Below, piece after piece: positions 2,714 through 7,042 of a DNA stretch of 64,000 bases. This DNA is from a virus. How positions within the stretch are numbered: the stretch's first letter is position 1; every line of letters starts with the position of its first letter. The notes under the pieces were generated by a model, which did not search any database, was not told the origin of the DNA, and worked only from the letters and a program-made list of their open reading frames with translations. Location: positions 1-64,000 of IMG/VR virus record IMGVR_UViG_3300042865_000182; one strand, 5' to 3'. The position numbers and the translations under genes were made by a program.

Positions 2714-3085
2714 TTATAGCAATGACATAAATGCATCAGCAGTCATTACTTTTACTTTTGGTTGTAGTTTGTCAAATAATCTTACAGTGTGTACAGACCA
2801 TTTGATACTAAGATTATTATAGCACCACAGCATATAATCCGGATGCTTTCTTACTGCATCTTCTACAGTAAGATTAATAATATGTGGCTTATTACTAAAC
2901 CAACAGTTATCCCATGGTCTAGTCCTTCTTCTAGTACCATACTCACCAGTATCATGTGGTTTATCATAGACCCTTTTATTTTCTGGTCTATGATATTGTT
3001 TATAGAAATATAACTGTCTTTCTTGGTGAGTCATACTCCATAGATTACCTTCTTTGAAGGCTTGGCTAATTGAATTCATAATCAT
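2714..3085 (-). CDS. Hypothetical protein (123 aa)
   Basis: ORF track; Trp/Arg-rich. Confidence 0.7.
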   Translation of the reverse strand: MIMNSISQAFKEGNLWSMTHQERQLYFYKQYHRPENKRVYDKPHDTGEYGTRRRTRPWDNCWFSNKPHIINLTVEDAVRKHPDYMLWCYNNLSIKWSVHTVRLFDKLQPKVKVMTADAFMSLL

Positions 3086-3493
3086 AAGTTTTAATCAGGT
3101 TAATAATCATATATAGTGGACGGAAACTAAATTCCCGGAAGATATTACTGTAAAACACTAACACTAATTATATATAGTAGTAGTAATAAGAGTAATATTA
3201 ATAGAGTGGTGGTAATATAGGCTGGTTTAGCCATATATATTATAATATTGTGGATTTCTAATGATTTAGAACATCTCACTTGACCCAAAGAATAGTGGAG
3301 AGATTAACACATCATCACACACACTTATCTCTATAATGTGTACTTAATAAACAGTGCAACTGGGTTGAGTATGCAACTTATGTGCATTTGAGCCTACTCA
3401 ACCCACAAAAGTACAAAGCTGTACTAACAAGTTGCCGAAGGCCTAATTAAAAAAATATAACCCGCACATAATGTACGGGCTATATTACTCACA

Positions 3494-3805
3494 TTAGAAC
3501 AATGGTTCTTCAGCAAGAGTGTTTTGTGCAACACCAAACAATGCACCAAGGTTGGCAATGGTAGCAACTTGGGCATCTGCACCATTCAACACGGTTAACC
3601 AAATATTGTCACCGTCTTGTTGACCCTCAACGGTATATTCAGCACCAATTTCAACACCTCTTTGGAAGCTCTTTTCCCAAATCTTTGCAAAGTAGTTGTT
3701 ACCGTCTGCTAACTTAACTACACAAGTGCGGTATTCAGATGCATTCTCACTGTTAGCTGTTTTTACTGTGTTGCTAACTGACACTAATGTTCCTTGAACT
3801 TTCAT
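3494..3805 (-). CDS. Putative OB-fold / ssDNA-binding-like protein (103 aa)
   Basis: Start reassigned to MKVQGTLVSV, directly after the motif at 3837; beta-rich pattern and acidic-hydrophobic tail EEPLF; function inferred. Confidence 0.5.
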   Translation of the reverse strand: MKVQGTLVSVSNTVKTANSENASEYRTCVVKLADGNNYFAKIWEKSFQRGVEIGAEYTVEGQQDGDNIWLTVLNGADAQVATIANLGALFGVAQNTLAEEPLF

Positions 3806-3890
3806 AATAAATAATTTATTGGTTAATACTCCAAGCAGTAAAAAGCTGTATAAACAAGATGTGCGAAGCACCTTATACAAAAAAAGGGGA

Positions 3891-4151
3891 TTACTCCCCG
3901 TATATTTCCATATCAAAACTAAGCCCTATGTCATTAAAGTATTCAAAGGTATGTTTCATTTTTATGAATATACTTGCTAACTGAAAGTCACACCTTGTGG
4001 GTGTTCCTACTCCTATGTAACAATCTTCATACTCCTTAGTGTCATAATTATAATGGCTAAAGCCCATAATATCTATATCAGGGCTTATTTGCATTTTAAT
4101 GTGGTCACGGAGTTCTGTTAGCATTTCTAATTGTATTTCTTTCTTTGTCAT
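3891..4151 (-). CDS. Small early hypothetical protein (86 aa)
   Basis: ORF track; motif at 4174 upstream; stop lies inside a GGGGAGTAATCCCC terminator. Confidence 0.8.
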   Translation of the reverse strand: MTKKEIQLEMLTELRDHIKMQISPDIDIMGFSHYNYDTKEYEDCYIGVGTPTRCDFQLASIFIKMKHTFEYFNDIGLSFDMEIYGE

Positions 4152-4215
4152 AATATATAGTTTAATTAATACTAGTAAAAAGCTGTAAATTAAAAAGAGG
4201 GGATGTTACTCCCCC

Positions 4216-4488
4216 TTAATACTCTGGATTCTCATAGGCATCTTGCATATTAGCTAATGCTGCTCTCATGTTTTTATCATTCTTTTCTTTGATATCCAGA
4301 TACTCATTAAGTGCATCTGCAACATGTCTTATCCAAGCCTCATTACCCCATTTAGTGTAAGCACTATCAGGAAGGTTTATTCTTGATTGAAGTATCTGTA
4401 TCATACATATCATAGTATGTTTATCTAGATAACCCATTCTGTTTAATAAACTTTGAGTAACTTCACTTCTGTCAATTCTTGTTTCCAT
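4216..4488 (-). CDS. Small early hypothetical protein (90 aa)
   Basis: ORF track; motif at 4512 upstream; terminator at about 4194-4215. Confidence 0.8.
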   Translation of the reverse strand: METRIDRSEVTQSLLNRMGYLDKHTMICMIQILQSRINLPDSAYTKWGNEAWIRHVADALNEYLDIKEKNDKNMRAALANMQDAYENPEY

Positions 4489-4544
4489 AATATATAGTTT
4501 TAATTTACATAAGTAAAAAGCTGTATAATAAAACCTAGAGGAAA

Positions 4545-4736
4545 TTAATCCTCTAAGTCTTCATTATACTCAAATGTTCCGGTCTCTATATACTCTATGA
4601 TTTCTGCCTTATAAGCATAATCAACTACCTTCCCATCAGGAAAGAATAGAGCATAAGTTTGTCTACCTTCAACATCATGTTGGTACACTACAGTCCCTGT
4701 AATGAGATACCAAATAAAAATAATCTGTGCTATCAT
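4545..4736 (-). CDS. Small early hypothetical protein, hydrophobic N-terminus (63 aa)
   Basis: ORF track; motif at 4754 upstream. Confidence 0.75.
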   Translation of the reverse strand: MIAQIIFIWYLITGTVVYQHDVEGRQTYALFFPDGKVVDYAYKAEIIEYIETGTFEYNEDLED

Positions 4737-4783
4737 ATATATAATTTAAAATTAGTACAAAGCTGTATTAAAGTAAAAGGGGA

Positions 4784-5074
4784 TTACTCCCCTCCTAAAA
4801 TTAGTCCTTCTTTTTCAAAGGTTACATAATGCTCACATAGATATTTAAGTTTTTCATACTCTTCATTGTTTATATGTATTGTGCAATATGGTATTCCTTG
4901 AGAATCATCTATTCTGATTAACATTTTCTGTGGATAACCAAAATCAATAATGCATTTAAACATATTATCAAAATCAGAATCTAGTGCTACAAAAGCACCC
5001 CAAATTTCTTCTGTTAAGTCATCAGGTGTATAATTTTTTTTATACTCACCTGAATGGTAAAATAAAACATTCAT
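4784..5074 (-). CDS. Small early hypothetical protein (96 aa)
   Basis: ORF track; motif at 5100 upstream; stop inside a GGGGAGTAATCCCC-like terminator. Confidence 0.8.
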   Translation of the reverse strand: MNVLFYHSGEYKKNYTPDDLTEEIWGAFVALDSDFDNMFKCIIDFGYPQKMLIRIDDSQGIPYCTIHINNEEYEKLKYLCEHYVTFEKEGLILGGE

Positions 5075-5155
5075 AATTTTTAGTTTTTAATTTAAGATTA
5101 GTAATAAGCTGTATATCAAAAAGTTAAAGTGCCACTATTAAAGTGACACTTCAAG

Positions 5156-5224
5156 TTAAGCATTGGGATTTAATACCCATTCCTTAACTGTTACAATTCC
5201 ATTGATGATTACATAAGATACCAT
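5156..5224 (-). CDS. Micro-ORF (22 aa) MVSYVIINGIVTVKEWVLNPNA
   Basis: Own motif copy at 5250 (26 nt upstream, as for neighbours), AT-rich leader, downstream hairpin at about 5127-5151. Confidence 0.55.
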   Translation of the reverse strand: MVSYVIINGIVTVKEWVLNPNA

Positions 5225-5267
5225 GATATTTAGTTTTAAGATTAATACTAGTGAAAAGCTGTATAAT

Positions 5268-5400
5268 AAAAAGAGAGAGAGTCTACATAACTCTCTCTAT
5301 TGTGGATGCTAATCCTCTTGTGGTATTACGGTCCAAAGCAATAAGGAACCAACCCTTTGGTGAATACATATAATACTGATATCATTTGGTCAATCAGCAA
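5268..5400 (-). ncRNA. Candidate structured small RNA occupying one cassette
   Basis: Starts right after the motif at 5405; nested stems TGCTGATT/GATTAGCA, GTATTAT/GTAATAC, CCAAAG/CTTTGG; terminator AGAGAGAGT/ACTCTCTCT plus T run. Confidence 0.5.
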
Positions 5401-5441
5401 TAAAAGTAAAAAGCTGTATATATACAAAGAGAAAGAGAAGC

Positions 5442-5651
5442 TTATAGCCTCCCTTTCCACTTATCCATTTTACCTTGTCTCCATTCAGTGTGTAATGTTC
5501 TTGCTATCATGAACATACCAAATCCAGCTAATGCTAGTATGAATGCATTAGCATACTGATGGCTTATAGCAACATAATATGTTACTGATACAATACACAT
5601 TATGGTACATGCATAGCATGCTACCATATTAAATAATCCAAAGGTTTTCAT
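5442..5651 (-). CDS. Small membrane protein (two predicted TM helices)
   Basis: Start reassigned to MKTFGLFNMV, 26 nt after the motif at 5677; two hydrophobic stretches. Confidence 0.7.
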   Translation of the reverse strand: MKTFGLFNMVACYACTIMCIVSVTYYVAISHQYANAFILALAGFGMFMIARTLHTEWRQGKMDKWKGRL

Positions 5652-5709
5652 AAGTTTTAATTTTATTATTAATAATAGTAGTAAGCTGTATATATAAATA
5701 TAAGCTACC

Positions 5710-5874
5710 CTAAAAGGGTAACTCATATTCTTTTTCCATTTGTGAATCATGTTCATAGAACATGTTCATATAATCACAAATACATTTTTTAATAGTATCA
5801 TGTGAATTGGTTTCTTCATTGAAATTGATATCTATATCATATTCCATATTACATGTTGAACAAGTATTTTCCAT
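5710..5874 (-). CDS. Small Cys-containing acidic protein (54 aa)
   Basis: Start reassigned to MENTCSTC, 26 nt after the motif at 5900; CxxC...CxC; ends EYELPF. Confidence 0.65.
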   Translation of the reverse strand: MENTCSTCNMEYDIDINFNEETNSHDTIKKCICDYMNMFYEHDSQMEKEYELPF

Positions 5875-6240
5875 AGCTAAAAGATTTAATATTAATAATA
5901 GTATAGAGCTGTATATATACATGATGTTGCTGTGTTGCTTGCTAGATATATACTATGATGGTTGAGATATCTCAGGAAGCATTGGTTATATATAATTATA
6001 TTATTAATACATACATACTAACATAAGTACATAGCAGTATCATGCTATTACAAATATATTTACCACAGATAAAAAAATATTTTTACATCCTAAAAAGTTT
6101 TAAGTTGTATAAATTTCATGGGGGGTATCACCAATCCAGACTGAGCCCGGGGTCTGATTATATATACCCCACCACATTCTCTTGTATACCACATTCTACT
6201 ATATACAATACCACCACATTGCAATTCCAAAAAATGTTTA

Positions 6241-6323
6241 TATATTTGCAGAGTTAGATTATCTCATCTTTCAAATAAATTAAGTAAGACAGACCCTGGT
6301 ACTCATGCACCGGGGTTTTGTTT
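6241..6323 (+). ncRNA. Candidate sRNA unit (promoter, short transcript, terminator)
   Basis: TATATTTG (Bacteroidota -7 consensus TAnnTTTG) at 6241-6248; ACCCTGGT/ACCGGGGT hairpin plus T run; no ORF. Confidence 0.45.
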
Positions 6324-6337
6324 ATAATAGAAGCCCC

Positions 6338-6507
6338 CCTGTGGTGAGATAGCCATAGGCCAAGTTCCAGACAGCATACCGTAGGATCTGCTCACTACAC
6401 TGGACTTTTTGGATACTGGGAAAGCAGACTGAAGGTACCTAAGTTTGTATAACTAGTATCCGGCCCAGATAAGTTTCTCTGATCAAGAATTACTGTCTGG
6501 GTTTTTT
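6338..6507 (+). ncRNA. Candidate structured ncRNA (four consecutive hairpins, last is terminator-like)
   Basis: GC-richer than surroundings; stems CCTGTGGT/GCCATAGG, TCCAG/CTGGA, GGATACTGG/CTAGTATCC, CCCAGATA/TGTCTGGG plus T run. Confidence 0.5.
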
Positions 6508-6598
6508 ATGTATCTTAGTAGTAAGTTATGTATACTTGGTCAGCGGACTAAGGGGAAGTCCCGGATGTTTATTCCGGGATTTTTTTTATATTTGCTTT

Positions 6599-7042
6599 AT
6601 GAAAAAGTTTGACATGGGTAAATATGTTCTGTTAGCAGGAGATAATGCTACAGAGATCTTTGATTATTATAAGGTAGATGAAATGCATGGTCTTAACAGA
6701 GCTGATGCCCAAGCAGAAGAGATTGATAAGAAAACTGGTAATGGAGTTTACATTTATGGGTGGACTAACTATGACCCGGCTGATAAGAAGCTGACTGCAA
6801 AGGCTCCACATAAACCATTCTTGTTTCTTAACTTAAGTACATTTAAGAAGTACTCCCTTACAGAAAAAGCCACTGCTGTTATGCATGAGACTATGCACAT
6901 GAGTATCTTATTGAACAACTGGAAGATTACTGACAAAGAAGAAGAAGCTATAGGCTTTGCTGAAGATGAAGCTAACAAGATTATAGAGAAGTTAGGCTTT
7001 AATAAAAAGGAAGAACCAAAAAAAGGTTTCTTTAAAAAGTAA
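6599..7042 (+). CDS. Putative zinc metalloprotease-like protein (HExxH)
   Basis: HETMH motif with downstream Glu (EEEA); ATG at 6599 directly after TATATTTG (6587-6594), so probably leaderless. Confidence 0.6.
   Translation: MKKFDMGKYVLLAGDNATEIFDYYKVDEMHGLNRADAQAEEIDKKTGNGVYIYGWTNYDPADKKLTAKAPHKPFLFLNLSTFKKYSLTEKATAVMHETMHMSILLNNWKITDKEEEAIGFAEDEANKIIEKLGFNKKEEPKKGFFKK

Follow-up and report, generated by a model that had tools for sequence, protein, structure and literature searches.

Ten small cassettes with a candidate phage-specific early promoter open the replication arm of an uncultured crAss-like phage genome

Introduction

What does a short DNA sequence do when it recurs ten times within 2.5 kb of a phage genome, ahead of a string of very small genes, and what would read it? 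This question is raised by nucleotides 3410–5913 of IMG/VR virus record IMGVR_UViG_3300042865_000182, a 107,394-bp record that is ~90% complete and whose first 64 kb are the stretch analysed here (the window, below). The phage is an uncultured freshwater one and is distantly crAss-like; its terminase, portal and capsid proteins match crAss PHROG families, its terminase is ~25% identical to gut crAss-like and Flavobacterium phage terminases, and a search for near-identical phage records returned none. A sequence-only reading of the window had described the locus as ten promoter–cargo–terminator units marked by a 14-bp motif, and had suggested that the motif is recognised by a virion RNA polymerase or an early factor. 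We find that the locus is very probably an array of cassettes with a phage-specific early promoter, similar in plan to the promoter-early stem-loop (PeSL) cassettes of T4-type phages, and we lean, by a modest amount, towards the fuller statement that these promoters are read by an injected virion polymerase.

The arrangement that we propose is as follows. Ten one-gene (or one-RNA) transcription units would head the leftward replication (early) arm of the genome. Each would start at a phage-specific promoter of ~24 nt, continue through an AT-rich leader of ~17–31 nt into a small orphan gene and be closed by a hairpin and T tract ~10–16 nt before the next promoter, and the last promoter would read through a 324-nt leader into the open reading frame (ORF) at 2714–3085. 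The repeated promoter/terminator joints would also offer short stretches of homology where cassettes are gained, lost and swapped between relatives, as happens at the PeSLs of T4-type phages. The most likely reader would be an injected crAss-type virion RNA polymerase (encoded at 65590–75837) and not the host polymerase, and if the injected enzyme does read them, these units would be the first genes expressed after infection.

A 24-nt block repeated ten times

The pattern AGTRNNRAGCTGTA matches ten times, always on the plus strand (TACAGCTYNNYACT on the coding minus strand) and always within 3410–5913, where dinucleotide shuffles gave a chance expectation of 0.04 matches and a maximum of one. 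The whole 107,394-bp genome holds no further copy, and thus the ten recurrences and their absence from the rest of the window, both of which had been noticed from the letters, were confirmed. A consensus and weight matrix built from 39 unique sites in five genomes show a conserved block of ~24 nt, longer than the 14 bp first recognised: TATACAGCTYWNTACTanTaTTAAT (TA-TACAGCT-Y-W-N-T-ACT-a-n-T-a-TTAAT), in which TACAGCT, ACT and the T at +16 are invariant in the 39 sites and the flanks are variable. The ten copies score 28–35 bits with this matrix; the next-best matches are two degenerate copies at 6096–6109 (16.4 bits) and 6026–6039 (11.9 bits), and nothing in the rest of the 107 kb exceeds 9.4 bits, so that a 12-bit gap separates the ten copies from anything else. 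The motif is neither palindromic, nor an inverted repeat, nor repeated within a site. Viral contigs scanned directly for the 14-mer yielded, for the most part, isolated chance matches.

Could this be a promoter for the host RNA polymerase? The Bacteroidota primary-sigma pair (a -7 TAnnTTTG with a -33 TTTG ~19–21 nt upstream) was not found in the first 6 kb, array included, and no sigma70 or Bacteroidota-type match stands in register with the motif. The motif also differs, as had been claimed, from the host TAnnTTTG consensus used on the other strand, where the intergenic promoters are TATATT(T/A)(G/A)-like, and its 24 nt form one contiguous block, unlike the two-part form of a sigma promoter. 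We therefore judge it unlikely, on these features and on the behaviour of the core among relatives (below), that host polymerase reads the motif by way of an alternative host sigma factor or of an injected or very early phage factor that redirects the enzyme. T4 MotA/AsiA redirects host polymerase in this manner; such a factor here would need to be injected or to have some other promoter of its own. In favour of a host reader, host polymerase serves the first genes of most phages (review PMC4496689), and T4-type PeSL cassettes, the closest architectural match to this array, use sigma70 promoters.

Architecture of the units

Each full unit has the same order: promoter-like block, AT-rich leader of 17–31 nt, ATG, ORF of 22–103 aa, and hairpin plus T tract. 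The distance from motif end to ATG is 31, 22, 23, 17, 25, 25, 25 and 25 nt for the eight copies that precede ORFs, in agreement with the earlier count of 18–32 nt with four at 26, which differs by one base in the counting. The next motif begins ~10–16 nt past the preceding terminator hairpin. Folding places a stable hairpin (dG -11.7 to -20 kcal/mol) within 55 nt before nine of the ten copies, and most of these nine hairpins carry a T tract; the first copy, which has no gene upstream of it, has no stable hairpin (-4.5 kcal/mol), and for this reason the hairpins appear to belong to the preceding unit and not to the motif. A scan over 9 kb, where 3.6 terminator-like sites were expected, returned 18, and the minus strand of the array holds six of these; the GC-rich hairpin followed by a T tract that typifies intrinsic terminators is present in the array.

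The array opens the replication arm. Plus-strand genes occupy ~6.5–84.2 kb (structural genes, then giant cargo genes), and minus-strand genes run from 107.4 to 84.5 kb and then, across the arbitrary start of the record, from 5.9 kb to position 1. The minus (replication) arm encodes a DnaB-type helicase, a Toprim primase, a PD-(D/E)XK nuclease and an AAA/DUF2201 pair; the array at 3410–5913 (minus strand) lies at its head and adjoins the divergent junction at 5.9–6.5 kb, a position that is constant across relatives.

The features are listed below in the direction of reading, after the two degenerate copies. All are on the minus strand, and the terminators are predicted ones. Letters denote homology classes of units.

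6096–6109: degenerate 11th copy TACAACTTAAAACT, 16.4 bits; exact motif in the close relative L083, and its TACAACT form is used in G018
6026–6039: weak 12th copy TACTGCTATGTACT, 11.9 bits
5900–5913: motif copy 1 (TACAGCTCTATACT), 35.0 bits; extended block ~5891–5915; no upstream hairpin
5710–5874: cargo G, 54-aa Cys-rich (CxxC...CxC) orphan ORF
5696–5730: unit 1 terminator hairpin (dG -20)
5677–5690: motif copy 2
5442–5651: cargo A, 69-aa hydrophobic ORF, by its sequence probably a membrane protein; kept in all class-A arrays
5430–5458: terminator hairpin and T tract after cargo A
5405–5418: motif copy 3, heading the ORF-poor unit H (~120 nt)
5274–5298: unit H terminator
5250–5263: motif copy 4
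5156–5224: cargo B, 22-aa mini-ORF, kept in all class-A arrays
5124–5154: terminator hairpin after cargo B
5100–5113: motif copy 5
4784–5074: cargo I, 96-aa orphan ORF without a counterpart in G011 and G001
4774–4797: terminator hairpin (GGGGAGTAATCCCC type) after cargo I
4754–4767: motif copy 6
4545–4736: cargo C, 63-aa ORF with the widest distribution of all the cargo (homologues in G001, G006, G008, G009, G011 and G015)
4530–4561: terminator hairpin after cargo C
4512–4525: motif copy 7
4216–4488: cargo D, 90-aa orphan ORF
4198–4216: terminator hairpin and T tract after cargo D
4174–4187: motif copy 8
3891–4151: cargo K, 86-aa orphan ORF, not seen in any other array compared
3886–3899: terminator GGGGAGTAATCCCC + T7 after cargo K
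3861–3871: small additional hairpin GTGCTTCGCAC, 10 nt upstream of motif copy 9; recurs in relatives
3837–3850: motif copy 9
3494–3805: cargo E, 103-aa predicted OB-fold protein, present in every class-A array that extends this far
3454–3486: terminator hairpin and T tract after cargo E
3434–3443: small additional hairpin GGCCTTCGGC, 10 nt upstream of motif copy 10
3410–3423: motif copy 10
3086–3409: unit F, conserved 324-nt non-coding leader with no terminator called before the next ORF
2714–3085: 123-aa ORF, probably expressed from motif copy 10

Cassette exchange among related phages

Arrays with the same motif are found at the same place and in the same orientation in G001 (8 copies), L083 (10), G011 (8) and L156 (6) (G and L numbers are our labels for the sequences compared), and also in G018 (4 exact copies plus TACAACT variants) and G021 (2). 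Three more distant contigs carry 2–3 copies, and five metagenome contigs (DNA) carry up to 9. The order of units in the five arrays that were compared is as follows.

This genome: GAHBICDKEF
G011: GABCDDEF
L083: LJAHBICDEF
G001: ABDCMNEF
L156: JAOBPC

Backbone units A, B, C, E and F are retained, and the other units are inserted, lost, replaced or reordered, always from motif to motif. The eight cargo ORFs fall into separate similarity clusters; they are thus mutually unrelated, as the sequence-only reading had it, and its expectation that the motif would be kept among related genomes while the cargo varies is borne out across the five arrays. Anatomy and comparison with relatives together support the description of the locus as a promoter–cargo–terminator array well. 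The motif, its architecture, position and conservation, the exchange of cassettes, the switching of the core and the presence of a polymerase gene are observed; promoter and terminator activity, timing and the identity of the reading polymerase are inferred.

Might the motif be only a place at which cassettes recombine (integron- or PeSL-like homology), or a signal at the RNA level for processing or enhanced translation, with no promoter role? The gain, loss and replacement of cassettes at motif/terminator borders would agree with this, and the same genome offers an example of genes linked by a repeat without a promoter: at 104,540–106,110 (minus strand, outside the window) six genes are linked by an identical stop/start junction, TTTAAATCAGAATAGAATG, repeated six times, which is a second, promoter-less type of cassette joint in the replication arm. 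Against it, every motif copy follows a terminator except the first, which has no upstream gene from which it could be processed; two copies head units without an ORF; there is no credible integrase nearby and the motif is no inverted repeat; and a signal read by ribosome or RNase should not switch its core between phages whose identical host-type promoters (below) suggest a common type of host. We consider a joint-only or RNA-only role very improbable. An integron cassette array with attC sites was also considered and rejected, since there is no integrase match of any weight (ORF 1627–1887 has only weak matches, to a PHROG integrase at E 0.002 and, below threshold, to Pfam CCDC-167) and the motif lacks an inverted repeat.

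Upstream of the anchor gene, L022, L060 and L063 have a plus-strand gene with 45- and 51-nt periodic coding repeats (e.g., CTTGCAGTATT every 45 nt). Their repeated k-mers were rejected as promoters because they are coding repeats, and periodic repeats of this type do not occur in the window.

The early core switches between relatives

Elsewhere in the clade both the layout and its place at the front of the replication arm are preserved, and in each case the units carry a different core, as listed here.

G007, L037 and L046: TAATAACCCCTTTTTTT (AACCCCTTT in G007), 6 copies
G009: TTATCAGCCYTTAAYT (ATCAGCCYTTAAYT), 2 copies
G019: ATCCAACTCATAACT, 4 copies
G015: (C)CACTAAA (CCACTAAA or TCCACTC listed for G015 and L033), 3 copies
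L033: TCCACTC, 8 copies
L032: GACATCTTCTTAC (GACATCT), 8 copies
L072: ACTGTTCTTTACT (ACTGTTC), 6 copies
L023 and L079: TCCCTTT fused to the preceding terminator arm, ~7–9 copies
G006 and G008: TAATACnnCATAT behind a small hairpin, 3 copies

Several of these cores are visibly variants of what would be one ancestral block (ATACAGCT…TACT, ATCCAACT…AACT, ATCAGCC…AACT and ACTGTTC…TACT). The plus-strand promoters, TTTnnTATATT and often TATATTTG, are by contrast the same upstream of orthologous genes in G000, G001, G011, G009, G006/G008 and G007. We take TTTnnTATATT to resemble the Bacteroidota -7 box. That the early core switches while the plus-strand promoters stay constant argues for a phage-encoded reader: the early core behaves like the target of something that the phage encodes, since a signal read by a shared host should stay constant. 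A host reader common to both arms would leave this difference unexplained.

A middle/late promoter-like block (T-rich, then TATATT(T/A)(G/A), often with AGTATA next) lies upstream of 6599, 7807, 9292, 13758, 15726, 24036, 32071 and 39125 (plus strand), and it is conserved before orthologous genes in all relatives examined.

A phage-encoded reader need not be a polymerase. The block could be mainly an operator, over a generic AT-rich promoter, for a phage regulator that shuts off or activates the early units and that the lineage-specific core tracks. The invariant GC core lies inside AT-rich flanks that include TATTAAT, pairs of regulators and operators switch by lineage, and the early genes of crAss001 include a transcriptional regulator, all of which would suit an operator. 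Yet Pfam and PHROG searches recognised no DNA-binding regulator among the cargo or neighbouring ORFs, the motif is neither palindromic nor repeated within a site, and once it is set aside no separate recognisable promoter is left. We regard the operator explanation as improbable, and return to a promoter read by a phage polymerase.

A virion RNA polymerase homologue as candidate reader

Does the phage encode a polymerase that could read the block? An ORF at 65590–75837 of the genome, outside the window, encodes 3415 aa with DFDVD at residue 2533, a catalytic DFDxD motif of the type with I or V in fourth place, and a motif search found DFDID or DFDVD in its orthologues in G006–G009 and G011 and no DFDxD motif in that of G012. 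In tblastn searches its residues 2001–3000 match 85 crAss-like phage records, among them phi14:2 g066 “catalytic RNA polymerase subunit” (E 3e-8), a crAss001 “putative RNA polymerase” (E 6e-12) and a polymerase annotation in crAss002; direct phmmer comparison with PDB chains and PHROGs gave no match. These similarities mark the ORF as a crAss virion RNA polymerase homologue of the gp66 family, and its place among the giant cargo genes suggests that the protein may be packaged in the virion and ejected. It is among the fastest-diverging shared proteins, 30–31% identical to the G006–G009 orthologues compared with 84–94% identity for the capsid protein.

In phi14:2 the replication arm is wholly early and its transcription is rifampicin-resistant, which was attributed to injected gp66, and the other arm has host-type promoters (Drobysheva et al., bioRxiv 10.1101/2020.03.07.982082). 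By position the array would belong to this gp66-type early class. The relation between polymerase and motif was examined by scoring 14 related genomes for identity of the polymerase core to that of this genome and for their early core.

G011 (84%), G018 (62%) and G021 (57%): TACAGCT
G015 (62%): (C)CACTAAA
G019 (54–60%): ATCCAACTCATAACT
Nine genomes (43% or less): not TACAGCT

The TACAGCT core is therefore found only in three of the five genomes with the most similar polymerase core and in none of the nine at 43% or less. G012, whose polymerase core is 56% identical, is without the array region and is uninformative in this comparison. The comparison covers one clade, since relatives of the G007 polymerase, from a second, were too few or too short for it. 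The pattern fits a specificity that would be determined by the polymerase and be switchable through local changes. The proposal that a virion polymerase recognises the motif is thus plausible on four grounds: a gp66 homologue is encoded; the array heads the arm that matches the rifampicin-resistant class of phi14:2; the core changes between relatives while host-type promoters are constant; and the motif is confined to genomes with the most similar polymerase.

Several points weigh on the other side. The phi14:2 study detected no common motif upstream of the gp66-made early transcripts (bioRxiv 10.1101/2020.03.07.982082), and use of a strong consensus promoter is therefore not established for this polymerase family; we likewise saw no comparable GC-core motif at the phi14:2 early head. 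The relation between polymerase and core is imperfect, since G015 and G019 use other cores, and it is a correlation among related genomes that is confounded by shared ancestry, not a test. Copies of the motif stop 2.5 kb into the arm and are absent from the ~25 kb of replication genes that follow, for which a further promoter class or read-through is required. Nor need the array be the first DNA to be transcribed: in G007, with its terminal repeats, it stands mid-genome. Finally, an unusual host sigma factor could in principle read the motif. The absence of a common gp66 motif in phi14:2 and the different cores of G018 and G015, whose polymerases are about equally similar to that of this genome (both 62%), also speak for host polymerase as the reader. 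We nonetheless find an injected polymerase the best explanation, and slightly more likely than not.

The block is a concrete candidate for the still undescribed promoter of the injected crAss-type polymerase; in the searchable part of the literature, whose only experimental study is the one on phi14:2, we found no early or virion-polymerase promoter consensus published for this phage group. This polymerase is structurally unusual (two-barrel). A sharply defined 24-nt candidate, repeated 10 times here and 2–10 times in relatives, with natural core variants available in otherwise near-identical layouts, would bring the promoter question within reach of in vitro tests, uncultured phages included. 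In the arrays one further sees how an abundant phage group acquires and exchanges orphan genes that would be its first-expressed ones.

At least seven early cores are present among phages whose capsid proteins are 84–95% identical. A tentative extension, which we think rather doubtful, is that early core and injected polymerase form lineage-specific lock-and-key pairs that diversify far faster than the rest of the virus. Were this true, an injected polymerase would activate only the first genes of its own lineage, which would create transcriptional incompatibility between co-infecting crAss-like phages, and the clade would be a natural mutant series for locating the promoter-recognition element of a two-barrel single-chain RNA polymerase.

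Comparison with known early promoter systems

PeSLs are promoter-early stem-loop cassettes of the T4-type phages RB49 and phi1 (Arbiol et al. 2010, PMC2839356). They and the array share a dense intergenic composite of early promoter and terminator stem-loop that is repeated and that flanks small ORFans in a hyperplastic region, and in both close relatives differ by gene insertion, deletion and replacement at the joints. They differ in that PeSL promoters are sigma70-type and host-read, whereas that of the array is a contiguous, phage-specific block with no sigma70-like character whose core switches between relatives, and in that the stem-loop of the array is always upstream of the promoter and not inside it.

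The nearest functional analogue would be the early promoter set of coliphage N4, to whose transcription programme that of crAss phages has been likened. N4 early promoters P1–P3 are read by an injected virion RNA polymerase, and are template-strand hairpins with a C-GNA-G triloop centred at -11 that need gyrase and SSB (PMC4496689). Both systems would have a few phage-specific promoters that open the early region, an injected polymerase, and middle and late genes read by other machinery. However, the conserved element of the array is a linear sequence with no conserved inverted repeat, no N4-type hairpin (5–7 bp stem with a GNA triloop at -11) is present, and eight of the ten units have no such hairpin at all; only units 9 and 10 carry a small 3–4 bp hairpin (GAA triloop, template strand) 10 nt upstream, in a geometry unlike that of N4. 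The enzymes differ as well, the N4 polymerase being T7-like and the crAss enzyme a two-barrel polymerase.

The small extra hairpins of units 9 and 10, GTGCTTCGCAC (3861–3871) and GGCCTTCGGC (3434–3443), are additional to the main terminators. On the template strand they are GAA triloops closed by C-G, the type that N4 promoter hairpins require, and irrespective of core class, similar GCCTKYGGC(AGC) hairpins stand 8–11 nt before the core in G018, L176, L162, L033, G015, G019 and G006/G008. The extra hairpins might act as reserve terminators or as an accessory to the promoter.

Phage phi14:2 resembles this genome in having its replication arm on one strand and structural and polymerase genes on the other with host-type promoters, in its gp66 homologue, in having non-coding transcription units placed first in the early arm and in a shared TTAAAACT-type leader; it differs in that no common upstream motif was detected there, while the motif of the present clade is sharply defined. 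The element of the shared leader, (A)TTAAAACT(A), lies a few bases before the ATGs at 3085, 4151, 4488, 5074, 5224 and 5651, and also in phi14:2 (L254) early genes at 283, 1984 and 2194 and before some plus-strand genes; it probably belongs to Bacteroidota-type translation initiation and not to the promoter.

In the T7 group (T7, T3, SP6) the promoter is contiguous and ~23 nt long, and its short specificity core varies from one related phage to the next. The array likewise has a contiguous block of ~24 nt with a short core that varies by lineage, but T7-group polymerases are of another family, the link of the array to its polymerase is only inferred, and the array cores diverge between phages whose capsid proteins are still 92–95% identical.

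Cargo proteins and units without ORFs

Nine ORFs (the seven cargo ORFs of 54–103 aa and two downstream ones) were searched against Pfam and PHROGs and none belongs to a family there. The only cargo fold obtained is that of the 103-aa protein (3494–3805), which models as an OB fold with moderate confidence (pLDDT 68) and whose best structural matches are Teb1 OB-A, ribosomal protein S12, and SSB and RPA OB domains. With that moderate confidence it is predicted to be a small OB-fold nucleic-acid-binding protein. A protein atlas gave weak SSB/DUF3127 leads for it and no match for the 63-aa protein. The suggestion, made from the letters, that the array is a host-takeover/anti-defence island gains neither support nor contradiction from this cargo, which is orphan but for the OB-fold protein. 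The idea that the 103-aa protein mimics an SSB tail was dropped, because the SSB-like C-terminal tail (…EEPLF) is missing from its more distant homologues. G018 (L357 7900–8800) has two tandem OB-fold cargo paralogues, one cassette each, which suggests that dosage or diversification of this cargo matters.

Two motif copies, at 5405–5418 and 3410–3423, have no ORF at the usual distance, in agreement with the earlier statement that two copies precede structured non-coding sequence. The structured part of that statement is not convincingly borne out: no strong structure was found in the two stretches (z -1.5 and -2.0, with no covariation), and Rfam families are absent from 2900–6700. The copy at 5405–5418 heads a ~120-nt unit that ends in its own terminator. 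That at 3410–3423 heads the conserved 324-nt stretch running into ORF 2714–3085, and since neither a scan nor the consensus fold shows a terminator before this ORF, the stretch appears to be a long leader and not a separate RNA.

At 6111–6175 (minus strand), shortly before the first promoter copy, lies a GC-rich inverted repeat (GGGGTAT…ATACCCCCC) with GGTGRTACCCCC in it. This element, possibly an origin, packaging or regulatory site, also precedes the first unit in L083, L020 and G019, even though the core of G019 is a different one, and it may mark the start of the early arm.

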